DNA from: Thermoanaerobaculia bacterium
GTDB taxonomy: Bacteria; Acidobacteriota; Thermoanaerobaculia; UBA5066
DNA length: 64,000 nucleotides
Assembly: GCA_963816185.1 (NCBI GenBank)
Contig: CAWFJJ010000029.1
Location: 352,001 to 416,000, forward strand
Reading direction: 5' to 3'
The notes beneath the pieces are model-generated. The model worked only from the letters and a program-made list of their open reading frames with translations. It did no database searches and was not told the origin of the DNA. A program made the translations under genes and the position numbers. Below are positions 5,318-54,866 of the stretch, in pieces; position 1 is the stretch's first letter, and each line of letters begins with the position of its first letter.

Positions 5318-5497
5318 AACGCTCGTTTCTGGAAACCCTTACAGCGAAGCTTCTTATAGCATGTCAGACACTTGGCATGCCCTCCCGGCGCGACGGGGCG
5401 AGTGTAACTTTACCGCCGTTTGCCTCTGGGGTATCGTCATTAATTCCTTCGGGCCCCGTGGCATGCGCCCCGGATGCGCCCGTCTTCGGAGAACAAG

Positions 5498-7444
5498 ATG
5501 CTCAAGGCGCTGCGTGAAAACTTCAAACACCTTCAATGGATCCTCTGGGCGGTGATCGCGATCTTCGTGATCTTCGTCTTCGCCGACTGGGGGATGGGCT
5601 CCCAGCGCGGCGGAGCCGGCGACGCGGCGCTCGCTGCGAAGGCGGGCGACATCCGGATCACGACCACCGAGTTCCAGAGGGAATACGCGTTCGCCGAGGA
5701 CCGCTATCGGCAGGCGTACGGCAAGAACTTCAGCCCCGAGCTCGCGCGGGCGATGAACCTGCCCGAGCAGGTTCTGAACTCCCTGATCGACCGCCGCCTG
5801 TTCCGCGAAGAGGCCGAGCGACTGCACCTCAAGGTGACCGACGACGAGCTCACGCAGCACATTCTCGGCATCAAGGACCCGCAGAGCGGCAAGGCGCTTT
5901 TCGTGAAGGACGGGGCCTTCGTCGGCGACGCGGCCTACCGGCGCATTCTCGCGGCGAATCATCTCGTGCCGCAAAGCTTCGAGGAGCAGCAGCGCGAACA
6001 AATCCTCCTCGAGAAGCTGAACCGGTTCTTGACGGAAGCCGTCGTCGTGTCCGACGACGAGGTGAAGACCGAGTTCGAGAATCGACACGTCAAGGCGAAG
6101 ATCGCATGGGCGCTCCTGCCCGTCGTCACGGCCGCGCAGTCCCCCGTCTCGGACGCGGAAGCCGAGGCGTTCTTCAAGGCGAACCCGACCCCGTACCTGC
6201 AGCCGGAGAAGCGCAGGGCGAAGTACCTCCTCGTCGAGTCGGCGAAGATCAAGCCTACGATCCAGGTCTCGGATGCCGACGTCGCGGCCGACTACGCCGC
6301 GAACGCGGAGAGCTACCGCAAGGGCGAAGAAGTGCATGCGCGGCACATCCTGTACAAGGTCGAAGGCGGAAACGACGCCTCGCAGAAGGCGAAGGCGGAG
6401 GCCGCAGTGCGAAGGCTCAAGGCCGGCGCGGACTTCGCGGCGCTCGCGAAGGCCGAGTCGGACGACCCCGGCTCGAAGGCGAACGGCGGCGACCTCGGCT
6501 CCTTCCCGAGGGGCCGCATGGTGAAGGAGTTCGAGGACGCGGCCTTCTCCGCGAAAGAGAAGGAGATCATCGGGCCCGTGAAGAGCTCGTTCGGGTACCA
6601 CGTCATCCAGGTGCTCGAAAAGACAGGGGAGCGCGTGCAACCGCTCTTCGAGGTCTCGGCGGGCATCCGCGCGCGCCTGCAGGAGGATCGCGCGCGCGAC
6701 GAGGCCAAGCGCCTCGCCACCGGCCTCGCCGAGAAGGTCGCGAAGATGGGCAAGCCGTCCGACGACGATCTGCGCAAGCTCGCCGGGGGCGGCGTGACGT
6801 TCAACGAGACGGAGCTCCTCGCGCGGACGGACGCGCCCCAGGGCATCGGCTTCAACCCGCAGTTCAACGAAAAGCTGTTCTCGCTCAAGGAGGGCGAGAC
6901 GGCCTCGACGCCCGTTTCCACGGCGCGCGGCGAGGCCATCATCAAGCTCGTCGAGGTCAAGAAGCCCGGTCTCCCGGCGTTCGCCGAGGTCAAGGCGCGC
7001 GTCATCGCCGACATCCAGAAGAAAAGGCAGGACGAAGCGACGCTCGCGTCGCTGAAGCAGGCGATGACCCCGGCCGCGACGCTCGAGGACATCGCGAAGA
7101 AGCTGAACCTCAAGATCGAGACGCCCGACGCGTTCGGGAAGGCCGGCCCGATTCCCGGGCTCGGCGCGCCGAAGGCGGTTCTCGACGCCGTGTTCGCCGC
7201 GAAGCCGGGCGAGCTGAAGGGGCCGATCGCCGTGGCCGAGCGCGGAGCGGTCGTCGTGCGCGTCGACAGCGTGACGCCGTTCGACTTGGCGGCGTTCGAG
7301 AAGGAGAAGGACACGCTGAAAGAGAGCCTGCGCGGCCAGAAATCGAACCGCCTCCTGCAGGCGCTCGTCCAGAAGAGACGCTCCGATCTGAAGATCGAGT
7401 TCAACCGCGAGCTCCTTTCGAAGATGGGCGGCTCGAAGGCGTAG
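5498..7444 (+). CDS. ppiD: PpiD/SurA-type membrane-anchored periplasmic chaperone and parvulin PPIase
   Basis: N-terminal TM helix, SurA_N-like region, and parvulin motifs ARHIL, DFAALAKAESDDPGSKANGGDLG and SSFGYHVI. Confidence 0.88.
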   Translation: MLKALRENFKHLQWILWAVIAIFVIFVFADWGMGSQRGGAGDAALAAKAGDIRITTTEFQREYAFAEDRYRQAYGKNFSPELARAMNLPEQVLNSLIDRRLFREEAERLHLKVTDDELTQHILGIKDPQSGKALFVKDGAFVGDAAYRRILAANHLVPQSFEEQQREQILLEKLNRFLTEAVVVSDDEVKTEFENRHVKAKIAWALLPVVTAAQSPVSDAEAEAFFKANPTPYLQPEKRRAKYLLVESAKIKPTIQVSDADVAADYAANAESYRKGEEVHARHILYKVEGGNDASQKAKAEAAVRRLKAGADFAALAKAESDDPGSKANGGDLGSFPRGRMVKEFEDAAFSAKEKEIIGPVKSSFGYHVIQVLEKTGERVQPLFEVSAGIRARLQEDRARDEAKRLATGLAEKVAKMGKPSDDDLRKLAGGGVTFNETELLARTDAPQGIGFNPQFNEKLFSLKEGETASTPVSTARGEAIIKLVEVKKPGLPAFAEVKARVIADIQKKRQDEATLASLKQAMTPAATLEDIAKKLNLKIETPDAFGKAGPIPGLGAPKAVLDAVFAAKPGELKGPIAVAERGAVVVRVDSVTPFDLAAFEKEKDTLKESLRGQKSNRLLQALVQKRRSDLKIEFNRELLSKMGGSKA

Positions 7445-10039: not shown

Positions 10040-10261
10040 ATGAGACGGATCGCTCTCGTCCTCATCCTGCTCGGCGTCGTGGGATTCCTCGTCGCCTCCA
10101 GCCAGCGCAGCGGTTACGAAAGCGTGGAGGGCCGGATGAAAGCTACGTTCTCGAAAGAGGAGCGCGGCAAGCGAGACATGGCCGCGACGGGGCGCTGGGT
10201 CGCCCTCGCGGTCGCGGCGATCGGCGCCGTTCTCTTCTTCGTGCCCGAACGGAAGGGCTGA
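10040..10261 (+). CDS. Small membrane protein with two TM helices, function unknown
   Basis: GGAGGA RBS and two hydrophobic segments. Confidence 0.7.
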   Translation: MRRIALVLILLGVVGFLVASSQRSGYESVEGRMKATFSKEERGKRDMAATGRWVALAVAAIGAVLFFVPERKG

Positions 10262-22529: not shown

Positions 22530-22626
22530 GGGGCTCTCCTCGTCCGGAACGTAAGGTGAAAAGACTAACACCCGATGTCGGAGCCGGCCCCGACCCGTGT
22601 ATAAGGTCCCACTCAGGTCTGCGAAA

Positions 22627-24021
22627 ATGGACGTACCGATTCAGGATCGTCTGGCTCAGCACCGGCTGCTCGTCGACGCGCCTCCCGACCAGCTCGCCTG
22701 GCTCGCCGCCCGCGGCCAGCTCGTTCTTTTGGACCCGGGCCACGAGCTCGCACCGAAGGGCACCACCGTGCCCGGCCTGTACATCGTCCTTTCCGGCCAC
22801 ATGTCGATCCACCTCGACCGGGGCGCCGGACCGCAGAAGCTCATGGAGTGGCGAAGCGGCGACGTGACGGGTTTCCTGCCGTACTCGCGCCTCGACAAGT
22901 CGCCGGGCGGCGTGAAGGCCGAGGAGCCGACCGAGCTCTGGATGATCCCGCGCGAGGAGATCCCCGCGCTGATTCGCGAGTGCTACGAGCTCACGTCGAT
23001 CTTCGTGCACGTGATGGTCGACCGGGCCCGCCAGTTCACGTCGAGCGACCTTCAGATTGAAAAGATGTCCTCCCTCGGAAAGCTCGCGGCGGGGCTCGCG
23101 CACGAGCTGAACAACCCCGCGTCGGCGGTCGCGCGGAGCGCCCAGGGGCTCAGGGCGCGATTGTCCGAGGTGGAACGGGCGTCCCGTGCGCTCGGCGCGG
23201 CACGCTTGTCCGAGGCTCAGCAGGCCGCCGTCGACAAGTCACGGAATCTCTGCCTCGCGGCGGCCGGTGCGACGGTCGGACGCTCGCCCATCGAGCGCGC
23301 GGACCGCGAAGACGTCATCGCGGCCTGGCTCGAGCGCCACGGGGCCGACGATGCCGCCGCGGAAGCGCTGGCGGAGTCCGCGATCACGCTCGACGCTCTC
23401 GATCGGCTCGCAGAAGAGCTTCAGGGCGAGGCGCTGAAGGTGGCCGTCGCGTGGCTCGTGGCCGGCTGCACAACGCAACAACTGGCCTCGGAGATCGAGA
23501 CGGCCGCATCCCGGATCCACAACCTCGTCGCGGCGGTGAAGGGCTTCACATACATGGACCAGGCGACGATGCCCAAGCCGGTGGACGTCGGCCGAGGGCT
23601 GGCCGACACGCTCGCGGTGCTCGCCGGAAAGGCCCGCGGAAAGTCGGTGAGCGTGAACCTCGACGTCGAGGCCGATCTTCCGCTCGTCCCGGGGTTCGGC
23701 GGCGAGCTCAACCAGGTATGGGCGAATCTGGTCGACAACGCGCTGGACGCGGCGAAGCGCCACGTCAACGTTGCCGCGGCCCGTCAGGGCCCTTCCGTCG
23801 TCGTGAGCTTCGTCGACGATGGACCAGGATTGCCTCCGGAAATTCGCGAGCGCATCTTCGATCCCTTCTTCACGACGAAACCCGTCGGCCAGGGCACCGG
23901 TCTCGGCCTCGACATTGCGCGGCGTCTCGTGCTCCGGCACCACGGAGAGATCGAGGTCGATTCCCGCCCCGGGCACACGCAGTTCACCGTGACGCTGCCG
24001 ATCGACGGAGGAAAAGGCTGA
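22627..24021 (+). CDS. Cytoplasmic histidine kinase with an N-terminal cNMP-binding-like domain
   Basis: H box AHELNNP, N box NQVWANLVDNA, DDGPG, FDPFFTTK and GTGLGL. The N-terminal region is CAP/cNMP-like and there is no TM helix. Confidence 0.92.
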   Translation: MDVPIQDRLAQHRLLVDAPPDQLAWLAARGQLVLLDPGHELAPKGTTVPGLYIVLSGHMSIHLDRGAGPQKLMEWRSGDVTGFLPYSRLDKSPGGVKAEEPTELWMIPREEIPALIRECYELTSIFVHVMVDRARQFTSSDLQIEKMSSLGKLAAGLAHELNNPASAVARSAQGLRARLSEVERASRALGAARLSEAQQAAVDKSRNLCLAAAGATVGRSPIERADREDVIAAWLERHGADDAAAEALAESAITLDALDRLAEELQGEALKVAVAWLVAGCTTQQLASEIETAASRIHNLVAAVKGFTYMDQATMPKPVDVGRGLADTLAVLAGKARGKSVSVNLDVEADLPLVPGFGGELNQVWANLVDNALDAAKRHVNVAAARQGPSVVVSFVDDGPGLPPEIRERIFDPFFTTKPVGQGTGLGLDIARRLVLRHHGEIEVDSRPGHTQFTVTLPIDGGKG

Positions 24022-24023
24022 CG

Positions 24024-25679
24024 ATGGCCAAGCCGGTGATCCTGACCGTCGACGACGACCCCGAGGTGCTCCGCGCAGTCGAGCGCGACCTTCGCAGCCA
24101 TTACCGGAGCGACTACCGCATCCTCAAGGCCGGCTCGGGCCGCGAGGCGCTGGAAGCTTCCCGGCAGCTCAAGGAGCGGGGCACTCCCATCGCCCTCTTC
24201 CTCGTGGACCAACGAATGCCCGAGATGACCGGCACCGAGCTGCTCCGCGAAGTGCTCAAGCTCTACCCGGACTCGCGAAGGGTCCTGCTCACCGCCTATG
24301 CCGACACTCAGGCCGCAATCGCGGGAATCAACGACGTCGGGCTGAACCACTACCTGCTGAAGCCCTGGGATCCTCCGGATCAGCGGCTCTACCCGGTCCT
24401 CGACGACCTGTTGTCCGACTGGACGGCGCACGTGCGCCTTCCCTACGAAGGCATCCGGGTCGCCGGCGCGCGGTCGTCGCCCCGGAGCTACGCCGTGAAG
24501 GAATTCCTGTCCAGCAATCAGGTTCCCTACCAGTGGGTCGACGTCGACGAGGACCCGCCGACGCGGGAGCTGATCCGCTCTTTCGGCGACTCGTCGAAGC
24601 TGCCGGTTCTCCTCTTCCCGGACGGCAGCCATCTCGTCGCGCCGACCAACCGCGAGCTGGCCGAGAAGATCGGCATGCAGACGCGGGCACGCCTGCCCTT
24701 CTACGACCTCGTGATCGTCGGCGGAGGCCCCGCGGGGCTGGCCGCCGCCGTCTACGGCGCCTCGGAGGGGCTGCGCACTCTCCTCGTCGAGCACAATGCG
24801 CCCGGCGGCCAGGCCGGCACCAGCTCCCAGATCGAGAACTACCTCGGGTTCCCGTCCGGCGTCAGCGGAGCCGACCTCGCGCGCCGCGCCCTCACGCAGG
24901 CGCGCCGCTTCGGCGCCGAGGTGCTTGCGCAGGAGGTCTTGGCTCTTCGCCGCGAGGATCCGTATCGCATCGTGCGGCTCGCGGACGGGACGGACGTTTC
25001 GTGCTACGCGGTCGTCCTCGCCACGGGAGTGTCCGTTCGGACGCTGGAGGCTCCCGGAATCGAAGCCCTCCTCGGCATCGGCGTCTATTACGGCGCCGCG
25101 ATGACCGAGGCCGCGACCTACCGCGAAAAGGACGTGTGCGTCCTCGGGGCCGGGAACTCGGCGGCACAGGGCGCCCTCTTCTTCTCGCGCTTCATGCGGC
25201 ACGTCGCCCTGCTCGTCCGAGGGAAGTCCCTCGGCCAATCGATGTCGAAGTACCTCGTCGATCGGATCGAGGCCACGCCGAACATCGAAGTCGTGACACG
25301 GGTCGAGGTCGCCAGGGTCGGCAGCACGGACCGGCTCGAGAAAGTTGTCGTCCGCGGCGTGGACGACGCACAGGAGCGAGAGCTTCCCGCCTCTGCGCCC
25401 TTCATCTTCATCGGCGCGAAGCCCCGGACCGAAATATTCTCCGGCTTCCTGGAGCTCGACGAGAAAGGGTATGTCCTGACCGGCCCGGACCTGCCCCACA
25501 CGGACCGAATCCCTCGCGGCTGGACGCTCGAACGGGACCCGTACCTGTTCGAGACGAGCGTCCCCGGCATTTTCGCGGCCGGCGACGTGCGCGCGAGCTC
25601 CGGCAAGCGCGTCGCGGCGGCAGTCGGCGAGGGCTCCGGGACCGTCAGCATGGTTCACCGCTACCTCGAGACCGTCTGA
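24024..25679 (+). CDS. Response-regulator receiver fused to a thioredoxin-reductase-like FAD oxidoreductase
   Basis: True start MAKPVILTVDDD at 24024. REC motifs DQRMP, LTAY and KPW; then GGGPAG, IENYLGFP, GAGNSA, AAGDVR and KRVAAAVGEG. Confidence 0.92.
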   Translation: MAKPVILTVDDDPEVLRAVERDLRSHYRSDYRILKAGSGREALEASRQLKERGTPIALFLVDQRMPEMTGTELLREVLKLYPDSRRVLLTAYADTQAAIAGINDVGLNHYLLKPWDPPDQRLYPVLDDLLSDWTAHVRLPYEGIRVAGARSSPRSYAVKEFLSSNQVPYQWVDVDEDPPTRELIRSFGDSSKLPVLLFPDGSHLVAPTNRELAEKIGMQTRARLPFYDLVIVGGGPAGLAAAVYGASEGLRTLLVEHNAPGGQAGTSSQIENYLGFPSGVSGADLARRALTQARRFGAEVLAQEVLALRREDPYRIVRLADGTDVSCYAVVLATGVSVRTLEAPGIEALLGIGVYYGAAMTEAATYREKDVCVLGAGNSAAQGALFFSRFMRHVALLVRGKSLGQSMSKYLVDRIEATPNIEVVTRVEVARVGSTDRLEKVVVRGVDDAQERELPASAPFIFIGAKPRTEIFSGFLELDEKGYVLTGPDLPHTDRIPRGWTLERDPYLFETSVPGIFAAGDVRASSGKRVAAAVGEGSGTVSMVHRYLETV

Positions 25680-36478: not shown

Positions 36479-36555
<77 letters not shown>

Positions 36556-36566
36556 TCAGAAGGAGG

Positions 36567-36595
36567 AACATAACGGGACGGCCCCGAGGAGTCAA
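36567..36595 (-). promoter_or_regulatory. Sigma70-type promoter of the tRNA
   Basis: TTGACT-N17-TATGTT, ending 11 nt upstream of the tRNA 5' end. Confidence 0.7.
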
Positions 36596-36635
36596 GCCGA
36601 CGTTCTCGCTGTTAACCTCCGGCGGCGGAGGCAGT

Positions 36636-37097
36636 ATGACTCTCTTTTCGTCAACGTCGCTCGAGCCCGGCATGGCCGCACCCGATTTCACGCTCCCCGA
36701 CCAGCACGGAAAGAAGGTGCGCCTTTCGGACTTTCGCGGAAAGCGCGTCGTCCTCTACTTCTTCCCGAAGGCCGACACCCCCGGTTGAACGATCGAGGCG
36801 AAGGCCTTCCGGGACGAAGGCCCGAAGCTCCAGAAGGACGTGGCCGTCGTGGGCGTGTCGAAGGACACGATCGAGGCGCAGGAGAAGTTCGCGAAGAAGA
36901 ATGAGCTGACGTTTCCCCTTCTCGCTGATTCCAAGGGCGAAGTGATCCGCCGCTACGGCGTGGACCTCGCGTTCGGCATCGCGAAGAGAAAGACGTTCCT
37001 CATCGACTCGAAAGGGAAGATCGCGAAAATCTACGAGTCGGTCTCGCCGAAGACGCACGCGGCCGAGGTCGCCGAGGCGTTGAAGTCCGTCGGCTGA
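36636..37097 (+). CDS. bcp: Bcp/PrxQ peroxiredoxin, probable selenoprotein (Sec at codon 51)
   Basis: GGAGG RBS. Reads APDFTLPDQHG..VVLYFFPKADTPG-[TGA 36786-36788]-TIEAKAFRD..VVGVSKD..RKTFLID..GKI in a single frame. The TGA sits at the peroxidatic Cys position of PxxxT/SxxC. Confidence 0.85.
36795..36830 (+). promoter_or_regulatory. Bacterial SECIS-like hairpin
   Basis: Perfect 7-bp stem GGCCTTC (36803-36809) / GAAGGCC (36816-36822) with loop CGGGAC, starting 14 nt after the UGA; possible lower GAG/CTC pairing. Confidence 0.65.
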
Positions 37098-53348: not shown

Positions 53349-53633
53349 TCATTCCTCCGCGGTCAGCGCGTCGAGGCCCGCGAGAATCGCGGCGGCATTC
53401 TCGTCGGGCCGCGCGAGGTAGACGGGAATCGCGCCCGGGATCTCGTGGTAGATCTCCATGAGGACCTCCGGGGCGTCCGTGACGACGGCGTCCATCCGCG
53501 CCGACCGGGCGAGGCGCTCGAGAATCGTTTCCAGCCCCCGCTCACCGAGGAACGTCGTCGTGGCCGGCGCGATCGCCCGCAGGCCTTCGAGCAGGTCGTG
53601 CCGCTCGAGCGTCGCGACGAGGACGTGGCGCAT
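53349..53633 (-). CDS. Small hypothetical protein, possibly a degenerate receiver-like fold
   Basis: GGAGGAG RBS. Sequence MRHVLVAT...MDAVVTD...IPVYL fills the gap between thyX and iscS. Confidence 0.65.
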   Translation of the reverse strand: MRHVLVATLERHDLLEGLRAIAPATTTFLGERGLETILERLARSARMDAVVTDAPEVLMEIYHEIPGAIPVYLARPDENAAAILAGLDALTAEE

Positions 53634-53681
53634 CGATGGGTCTCCTCCTTCATCTTGCAAACGGAAAGCCGCGAGCCGAGG

Positions 53682-54866
53682 ATGACGGCAGGCGGAGCCC
53701 GTTCGTTGAAGCTTCCCGTCTACCTCGATTATCACGCGACGACGCCGGTCGACCCGCGCGTCTTCGAGGCGATGCGCCCGTACTTTTCGGAGTATTTCGG
53801 AAACGCCGCGTCGGCGAGCCACGCCTTCGGGTGGCGCGCCGAGGCGGCCGTGACGAGAGGTCGCGAGGCCCTGGCCGCGCTCGTCGGCGCCAACCCGCGC
53901 GAGATCGTGTTCACGTCCGGCGCCACCGAGTCGGACAATCTCGCGATCCTCGGCGCTGCGCGGGCGCGCCGTACGCCGGGCGCCCACGTCGTCACGTCCG
54001 CGATCGAGCACCGCGCCGTCCTCGACCCGTGCCGCCGCCTCGAGTCGGAGGGCTTCGCCGTGACGGTGCTGAAGCCGGACGCTCACGGCGTCACGAGCGC
54101 GACCGCCGTGGCCGAGGCTCTCACGGAGCGCACGGTTCTCGTGTCCGTCATGGCGGCGAACAACGAGATCGGCACGCTCAATCCCGTCGGGGAGATCGCG
54201 CGAGTCTGCAAGGAGCGGGGAATCCTCTTCCACACGGACGCTGCCCAGGCGCTCGGCAAGATCCCGCTCGACGTGCACGCGCTCGGCCTCGATCTCGTCT
54301 CGTTCTCGGCTCACAAGCTGTGCGGGCCGAAAGGCGTCGGCGCTCTCTTCGTGCGCGCGATGAACCCGCGCGTGAGGCTCGATCCGATCGTGTTCGGCGG
54401 AGGCCACGAGCGCGGCCTCAGGTCCGGGACGCTCGACGTGCCGGGCATCGTGGGCTTCGGCGCGGCGGCCGAGATCGCGCGGGCGGAGGGAGAGGCCGAA
54501 ACGCGACGCGTTTCGGGCCTCCGAGATCGGCTGTGGGAGAGGCTTTGCGCGCGCGTCGACGGCATCTCGCGAAACGGTCCCGTCTCCGCCTGCCACCCCG
54601 GGAACCTGAACGTGACGATTCCGGGTGCGCCCGCAGACGCTGTCATGGCCGAGGCCCGCGACCTCGCGGTCTCGTCGGGATCGGCCTGCACGTCTGCGGA
54701 GGCGGCGCCGAGCCACGTCCTTCTCGCGCTCGGGCGGACGCGCGCGGAAGCCGAAGCCTCGATCCGCTTCGGCCTCGGCCGCTTCACGACGGAGGAGGAG
54801 ATCGACTGGGCGGCGGACGAAGTCGCCCGCGCGGTCGCGAGCGTGCGGGCGAGGAAGGCCCGTTGA
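53682..54866 (+). CDS. iscS: Cysteine desulfurase (IscS/NifS group I)
   Basis: YLDYHATTP, FTSGATES, NNEIG, SAHK (PLP lysine) and SSGSACTS motifs. Alternative TTG start at 53706. Confidence 0.93.
   Translation: MTAGGARSLKLPVYLDYHATTPVDPRVFEAMRPYFSEYFGNAASASHAFGWRAEAAVTRGREALAALVGANPREIVFTSGATESDNLAILGAARARRTPGAHVVTSAIEHRAVLDPCRRLESEGFAVTVLKPDAHGVTSATAVAEALTERTVLVSVMAANNEIGTLNPVGEIARVCKERGILFHTDAAQALGKIPLDVHALGLDLVSFSAHKLCGPKGVGALFVRAMNPRVRLDPIVFGGGHERGLRSGTLDVPGIVGFGAAAEIARAEGEAETRRVSGLRDRLWERLCARVDGISRNGPVSACHPGNLNVTIPGAPADAVMAEARDLAVSSGSACTSAEAAPSHVLLALGRTRAEAEASIRFGLGRFTTEEEIDWAADEVARAVASVRARKAR

Follow-up and report, generated by a model that had tools for sequence, protein, structure and literature searches.

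Peroxiredoxins (Prx) that carry the motif TxxU and fall in COG1225 (Bcp) and PF00578 constitute a long-known selenoprotein family (PMC9312934, PMC1088965, PMC13188914), with counts of 43 sequences for the Sargasso Sea and 12 for a 2006 genome survey (PMC1088965, PMC1794560); the latter survey credits the Acidobacteria with three selenoprotein families and four selenoproteins (PMC1794560). As this family is described, its members share the same domain, a PxxxTxxU motif, selenocysteine (Sec) in place of the peroxidatic cysteine and a bacterial selenocysteine insertion sequence (bSECIS) after the UGA, and Cys homologues are widespread. The gene considered here lies at 36636–37097 on the plus strand of a 64-kb stretch of DNA (the window; all coordinates are positions within it, and its G+C content is 68%) and differs in its origin, the Acidobacteriota class Thermoanaerobaculia. 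It is a complete Bcp/PrxQ-type peroxiredoxin gene with an in-frame UGA at 36786–36788 (+), the proposed Sec codon, which falls at residue 51, the peroxidatic position in the alignment with Cys homologues. Comparison with relatives makes it very probable that the gene encodes a Bcp/PrxQ peroxiredoxin in which this UGA specifies Sec as the peroxidatic residue. Judged by its sequence, the gene has every feature by which the Sec-Prx family is recognized, and it comes from a lineage for which we found no such report: in the literature searched no paper linked Thermoanaerobaculia with selenocysteine, and the papers listed for bacterioferritin comigratory protein with selenocysteine looked unrelated.

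Other described peroxiredoxins resemble the window protein in part. PrxU of Eubacterium acidaminophilum (NF040737), also a bacterial peroxiredoxin, likewise has Sec as its peroxidatic residue, and is reportedly a family member shown by experiment, in work of Sohling and colleagues from 2001. The window protein, however, belongs to another Prx subfamily and is not a PrxU orthologue, as it scores 57.9 bits against the NF040737 profile (233 positions), whose cut-off is 270. Cys-type Bcp/PrxQ enzymes of solved structure (5enu, 3drn, 5epf and Xanthomonas PrxQ, 5iiz) have the same fold and the same placement of the active site, where the window protein would have Sec for Cys. The Cys-type orthologues carry a resolving Cys at +5, whereas the window protein has Lys56; in this respect it is like the 1-Cys peroxiredoxin AhpE (1xvw), which is also without a resolving residue.

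The open reading frame (ORF) list of the window gives the gene as two ORFs, 36519–36788 and 36840–37097, which are in the same frame. When 36519–37097 is translated with TGA as U, a single internal U appears, in the context FPKADTPG-U-TIEA, followed by the terminal stop, and the read-through translation contains no second lesion. The start of the first ORF at 36519 was rejected as spurious, since it overlaps a divergent tRNA-Met (CAT) gene at 36479–36555 on the minus strand (ARAGORN; Rfam, 63.7 bits), a neighbour that lies outside the gene and serves as a marker of context and orthology. The true start is ATG 36636, which stands 4 nt behind a Shine-Dalgarno-like GGAGG read from the sequence at 36627–36631 (+), and an N-terminus of the form M-x-L-F/L-S/T is common to 30 in-frame full-length relatives (a further one, L017, is frameshifted). 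The gene comprises 153 codons including UGA51 and has its own stop, TGA 37095–37097; the 153 amino acids encoded by 36636–37094 include no Cys.

The predicted protein matches Pfam AhpC-TSA (PF00578; E = 5.2e-41) over residues 12–131, a domain that runs across the TGA. The top NCBIfam matches are Bcp (PRK09437, 123 bits, cut-off 140) and PrxQ (NF053650, 122 bits, cut-off 260), both under the equivalog cut-offs, and by sequence every one of the best matches in the PDB is a Bcp/PrxQ enzyme. An AlphaFold model built from alignment A1 has a pLDDT of 91.6 and places residue 51 in the first turn of a helix spanning 49–64, with Bcp/PrxQ and AhpE as the top PDB folds (TM 0.85–0.88). By sequence and model, 36636–37097 is thus predicted to encode a single Bcp/PrxQ peroxiredoxin with a thioredoxin fold. 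In the alignments U51 falls on the peroxidatic Cys of the 5enu motif PGCT and on a Ser in 3drn (PGS-T), and it completes the motif PxxxTxxC(U) as P44-K-A-D-T48-P-G-U51. Arg118 is invariant in a 47-sequence alignment; we take it to be the catalytic Arg, and the active-site roles given to Pro44, Thr48 and Arg118 are presumed from what is known of the family. Because residue 56 is Lys and there is no Cys anywhere in the protein, the window enzyme is classed from its sequence as a 1-Cys (here 1-Sec) type and not as an atypical 2-Cys type. An earlier note on this DNA, made from the letters alone, had proposed a 153-residue protein with no other Cys and no resolving thiol, split into two same-frame ORFs solely by the TGA at 36786, with Sec at the Bcp peroxidatic site; the read-through translation and the alignment to solved Bcp/PrxQ enzymes agree with it on each point.

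TGA is the commonest stop in the window, where it ends 24 of the 34 family-matched ORFs and also the peroxiredoxin gene itself, and it is therefore not reassigned genome-wide. Coding constraint continues past UGA51 undiminished. Across 325 pairs among 26 genes (the window gene and 25 in-frame Acidobacteriota-type Sec genes, with the frameshifted L017 left out), dN/dS by the NG86 method is 0.28 for codons 52–152 and 0.27 for codons 1–50. Codons 52–68, which lie between the TGA and GTG 36840, the start of the second listed ORF, are conserved as protein. These comparisons show a gene that is intact and conserved across the UGA.

A search of species-representative genomes gave 80 related loci of about 20 kb each, in which codon 51 is TGA in 39, Cys in 37 and unreadable in 4 (L030, L059, L077 and L080). 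The TGA loci fall into three sets. Twenty-six are Acidobacteriota-labelled, mostly Thermoanaerobaculia, and are 64–92% identical to the window; 25 of them are in frame, L017 being frameshifted upstream, and two (L019 and L023) come from the same metagenome-assembled genome (MAG). Residue 56 is Cys in three of these (L007, L009 and L018) and is not Cys in the other 23. A second Sec clade of 12 loci from Krumholzibacteriia, Latescibacteria and unclassified bacteria has Cys at residue 56 throughout (12/12). The last, L046, comes from a Coriobacteriaceae MAG, in which a Bcp gene (region 10127–10186) has TGA in the context PGU-THEAK, with Lys at residue 56, and adds a third lineage to the Sec-type Bcp genes. 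In all, at least three phylum-level groups have TGA at this codon. The Cys set takes in all the other readable loci, among them five Acidobacteriota-type orthologues (L024–L028) that have Cys at both 51 and 56.

Of 33 loci scanned, 27 have a tRNA-Met, in most cases no more than about 200 nt upstream and on the opposite strand; in 4 loci it is farther off. It adjoins Sec and Cys forms alike, and the locus is therefore orthologous between them. The alignment shows the UGA standing in place of the catalytic Cys codon of these orthologues. In the gene tree, Sec is accounted for by one change, a statement valid for the 26 Acidobacteriota-type rows only (support 84/69); ten loci were labelled outgroup and nine of these carry TGA, and the tree fixes neither the root nor the direction of change between Cys and Sec.

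The apical hairpin of the proposed bSECIS lies at 36803–36822 (+), with a perfect 7-bp stem formed by 36803–36809 and 36816–36822 and a 6-nt loop, CGGGAC, at 36810–36815, in which G occupies position 2. Between the TGA and the loop lie 21 nt, 14 of them ahead of the stem. In the bSECIS model as set out in PMC13188914, the loop has 3–9 nt, the stem 4–16 bp, the distance from the UGA is 16–37 nt and the minimum free energy is at or below −7.5 kcal/mol; one of the two leading loop positions is a G, and the base after it is usually G or U (PMC13188914). The loop size, stem length, G at position 2 and 21-nt spacing of the window hairpin all fall within these bounds, and the hairpin of one relative (L005), folded by itself, has −12.5 kcal/mol. 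Like the E. coli fdhF-type SECIS and the bSECISearch model as described, it is a stem-loop that follows the UGA directly within the coding sequence, the small apical loop has G and then G or U among its first bases, and the spacing is within 16–37 nt; the likeness to the fdhF element is one of arrangement, with no claim of sequence similarity, and SelB would be expected to bind it by analogy. A lower-stem extension at 36793–36833 (+) is a weaker candidate, seen in many single-sequence folds and with 80.6% of cells paired in the alignment and no compensatory change.

Conservation of the hairpin follows the codon. A perfect Watson-Crick stem of at least 6 bp with bSECIS geometry comes after 36 of the 39 TGA codons and after none of the 37 Cys codons (0/37). 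Two of the exceptions, L036 and L039, have a G-U pair within the same stem, and the third, L046, has a different, longer and imperfect hairpin that starts about 14 nt past the TGA. None of the six inner stem pairs varies among the 27 Acidobacteriota-type sequences, and this invariance extends to synonymous sites: in hairpin codons 57–62, five of the six use one codon in all genes, whereas outside the hairpin only 7 of 82 conserved degenerate codons are so uniform (Fisher p = 1.1e-4), and Glu61 is GAA in 26/26 genes, as against GAA in 41 of 191 other Glu codons.

In the second Sec clade the corresponding alignment columns also form a hairpin, alike in loop type but with a different stem. Three of eight stem pairs in the 39-sequence alignment are compensatory, going from G-C to C-G, from C-G to A-U and from C-G to U-A, and the last of these also varies inside the second clade. 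In this alignment 91.7% of cells are paired and the covariation score is 0.303, compared with 0.114 ± 0.017 for shuffles, of which 0/500 reach 0.303; controls with the pairing partner slid along the alignment score at most 0.051, and RNAalifold predicts the same helix. The compensatory changes shift amino acids together, from Ala57/Gly62 to Asp57 with Ile62 or Val62. Once relatives are compared, the hairpin is clearly more than a product of chance, to judge from these alignments, and they show that genes with the UGA, and only these, preserve it as an RNA element. The hairpin that the earlier note had read 14 nt past the TGA, GGCCTTC-CGGGAC-GAAGGCC with G at loop position 2, is there as described. 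The comparative tests that the note had proposed turned out in its favour as well: in orthologues that share the tRNA-Met neighbourhood, codon 51 is TGA in some and TGY in others, the hairpin fits the bSECIS model and is confined to Sec forms, and it covaries at three pairs across two clades.

Public protein sets hold the gene mainly in pieces. Among the best 120 matches to the protein, full-length Cys forms are 58–76% identical, and 39 are partial proteins that cover at most 68% of the query, most of which begin just past the TGA. Forms of 85 aa, 84–94% identical, start at residue 69, and forms of 101 aa, such as P0057, start at residue 53, two codons past the TGA. The expectation that annotation pipelines would miss the gene is borne out by these 85-aa and 101-aa fragments. 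Selenium use and redox capacity are under-counted in Thermoanaerobaculia and in Krumholzibacteriia and Latescibacteria because public sets hold the gene mainly as such fragments.

Several observations weigh against Sec insertion or against its signal. The stretch 36786–36830 (45 nt) folds with −15.1 kcal/mol, which is unremarkable for its composition (z = −0.96; 35 of 200 shuffles are as stable), and in contexts of 71–131 nt, where z ranges between −1.61 and +0.32, different pairings are favoured. The four single-sequence z-scores by context are −1.61, −0.96, +0.32 and −0.10; with z varying by context and other pairings favoured, single-sequence folding was rejected as evidence for the hairpin. 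Rfam at the gathering score reports tRNA only, with no match to a SECIS family. Within the window's own clade there is no covariation among the 27 Acidobacteriota-type sequences, the stem being invariant, and the compensatory signal comes mostly from one split between two clades and thus represents few independent events. As for the machinery, selA, selB, selD and tRNA-Sec were not found in the 64-kb window (ARAGORN, Rfam, and NCBIfam on 47 window ORFs), nor tRNA-Sec in the 33 loci scanned with ARAGORN. A tblastn search with E. coli SelA (partial), SelB and SelD found no selA, selB or selD in 1.36 Mb, comprising the window and the 80 loci, its sole match being a weak one of 27% identity to a GTPase domain in L032; this sample amounts to only about 20 kb per genome, so that the negative says little. 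The IscS-type cysteine desulfurase at 53445–54866 is not Sec-specific. No second selenoprotein candidate was found in the window, where two further matches with an in-frame TGA are antisense to real genes.

Sec insertion is accepted over the other explanations because of the comparison with relatives (TGA/Cys alternation, dN/dS, tracking of the UGA by the hairpin, and compensatory changes) and not because of the single sequence; alternation, equal dN/dS on both sides of the UGA and a hairpin limited to Sec forms together uphold the Sec-peroxiredoxin that the earlier note had put forward. A broken gene, in which a nonsense mutation or a sequencing error at 36786 has left two ORFs as relics beside a chance hairpin, would draw on the ordinary stability of the hairpin and on the frequency of similar ones, since a perfect hairpin of at least 7 bp with bSECIS geometry follows 21 of the 1304 TGA triplets in the window (1.6%), and decay does occur in the family, in the frameshifted remnant L080 with its internal stop and in L030, which is without its N-terminal half. 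Yet 39 loci, drawn from no fewer than three phylum-level groups, have the same TGA, dN/dS is equal downstream and upstream, the window gene has no second lesion, and the hairpin is conserved at synonymous sites and has compensatory changes, all of which makes a pseudogene or an error very improbable. We give just as little credence to two cistrons, where translation would end at UGA51, a separate C-terminal protein would be made from GTG 36840 and the hairpin between them would act in regulation or pausing. The 85-aa and 101-aa public proteins are exactly the products that gene callers give for such an arrangement, but their start varies by lineage (residue 53 or 69), as a gene-caller artefact would; moreover, neither half can make a thioredoxin fold by itself, both the Pfam domain and the model extend across the TGA, and the codons ahead of GTG 36840 are conserved as protein.

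An explanation that accepts both the recoding and the hairpin holds that the residue inserted at UGA51 is something other than Sec, either Cys by way of a selC*/selB*-type opal suppressor, or Ser, Ala or another residue by way of allo-tRNAs. An 8/4 tRNA-Cys(UCA) opal suppressor is described near selB-like genes in deltaproteobacteria, and Acidobacteria allo-tRNAs are said there to be possible suppressors of nonsense codons (PMC5389517). The failure to find Sec machinery in the window or the loci searched fits non-Sec recoding, and Cys at residue 51 would yield an active enzyme, as the Cys orthologues show. Where that report assigns selC*, however, it names Firmicutes, Thermodesulfobacteria, Nitrospirae and Proteobacteria, and not Acidobacteria (PMC5389517); Sec/Cys alternation, the TxxU motif and bSECIS geometry agree with the known Sec-Prx family; and most Sec forms of the window's clade have lost the resolving Cys, which fits a residue chemically unlike Cys better than it fits a costly insertion of Cys. 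We therefore consider a non-Sec residue unlikely; were it true, the locus would be a natural case of SECIS-directed non-Sec recoding. Better supported by the alignments is that the Thermoanaerobaculia lineage dropped its resolving Cys after gaining Sec, because 23 of the 26 Acidobacteriota-type Sec loci have no Cys56 while the second Sec clade keeps it in 12/12. Such a loss would mean that a 2-Cys-type catalytic cycle evolved into a 1-Sec one.

For a Sec-containing enzyme, the established bacterial pathway suggests how the codon would be read. SelB carrying Sec-tRNA(Sec) would bind the hairpin, whose loop is 21 nt past the UGA, and Sec would be inserted at UGA51 instead of termination, while the terminal TGA, which has no such hairpin, would be read as a stop. 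The selenolate at the N-terminus of helix 49–64, together with Pro44, Thr48 and Arg118, would then attack the peroxide and become a selenenic acid. Because Lys56 stands at +5 and the window protein has no Cys, the oxidized Sec would most likely be reduced directly by an external thiol reductant, for example thioredoxin or glutaredoxin, in a 1-Sec cycle. In relatives with Cys56 an intramolecular selenenylsulfide could form, as in atypical 2-Cys Bcp enzymes. Cys51 with Cys56, Sec51 with Cys56 and Sec51 alone make up a natural series at one chromosomal site, which lets one ask what Sec buys a peroxiredoxin. Knowledge of Sec decoding is unchanged and specialists will find the result ordinary, though correct; it is of practical use for annotation and through the Cys/Sec/resolving-Cys series.

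Elsewhere in the window, the ORF at 23451–25679 (+) combines a response-regulator receiver (about 197–316), a glutaredoxin/mycoredoxin-like stretch (346–407) and a thioredoxin-reductase domain (418–739), and its product could be a redox partner of the peroxiredoxin. Its 5′ part overlaps a histidine kinase ORF at 22597–24021, and its true start is uncertain.

A number of individual sequences bear mention. The closest full-length match in the public protein search, P0002 (76% identity), has Arg-Cys at 50–51 followed by downstream sequence of the Sec type, and could be a Sec-to-Cys reversion or the result of a database substitution of U by C. P0004, a 153-aa protein of the Sec-type group encoded on a 938-bp contig, has Trp at the Sec position (TPGW-TIEA), for which the likeliest explanation is that a gene caller read TGA under a Trp-reading code, rather than that the codon is a true TGG. 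L008 (JBLMYG010000151.1) is labelled Acidithiobacillales and holds a Sec gene of the Thermoanaerobaculia type, which the tree places within the Acidobacteriota group; the tRNA scan showed no tRNA-Met adjoining it, and either the contig is misbinned or the gene was transferred. In L017 (10001–10470), from a long-read Thermoanaerobaculia assembly, a single frameshift near codon 36 interrupts a Sec-type gene that is otherwise intact, and is probably an assembly indel.

In L080 (9740–10235), from an Acidobacteria MAG, the copy next to the tRNA-Met has lost its N-terminal half and contains a frameshift and an internal stop, while L077 (1–180), on another contig of the same MAG, holds the end of a Cys-type-like copy. 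L030 (480–980) has a C-terminal part near-identical to P0002, with unrelated sequence replacing the N-terminal half.

A scan of 44 related loci for genes with an in-frame TGA gave eight matches in coding-like composition, at L006:6606, L009:18054, L012:13333, L023:2731, L027:10474, L028:8607, L029:758 and L037:11093. They have no obvious CxxU or UxxC motif, and may represent frameshifts, neighbouring genes in one frame or additional selenoproteins.

In the intergenic region shared by the peroxiredoxin gene and the tRNA-Met, a sigma-70-like promoter match (9/12) lies at 36567–36595 on the minus strand, just upstream of the tRNA. ARAGORN also calls a tRNA-Ala (CGC) at 7224–7299 (+), with no tRNA reported there by Rfam at the gathering score. 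This call sits inside the 3′ end of a peptidyl-prolyl isomerase ORF (5474–7444), and either the tRNA call or the end of that ORF is wrong.

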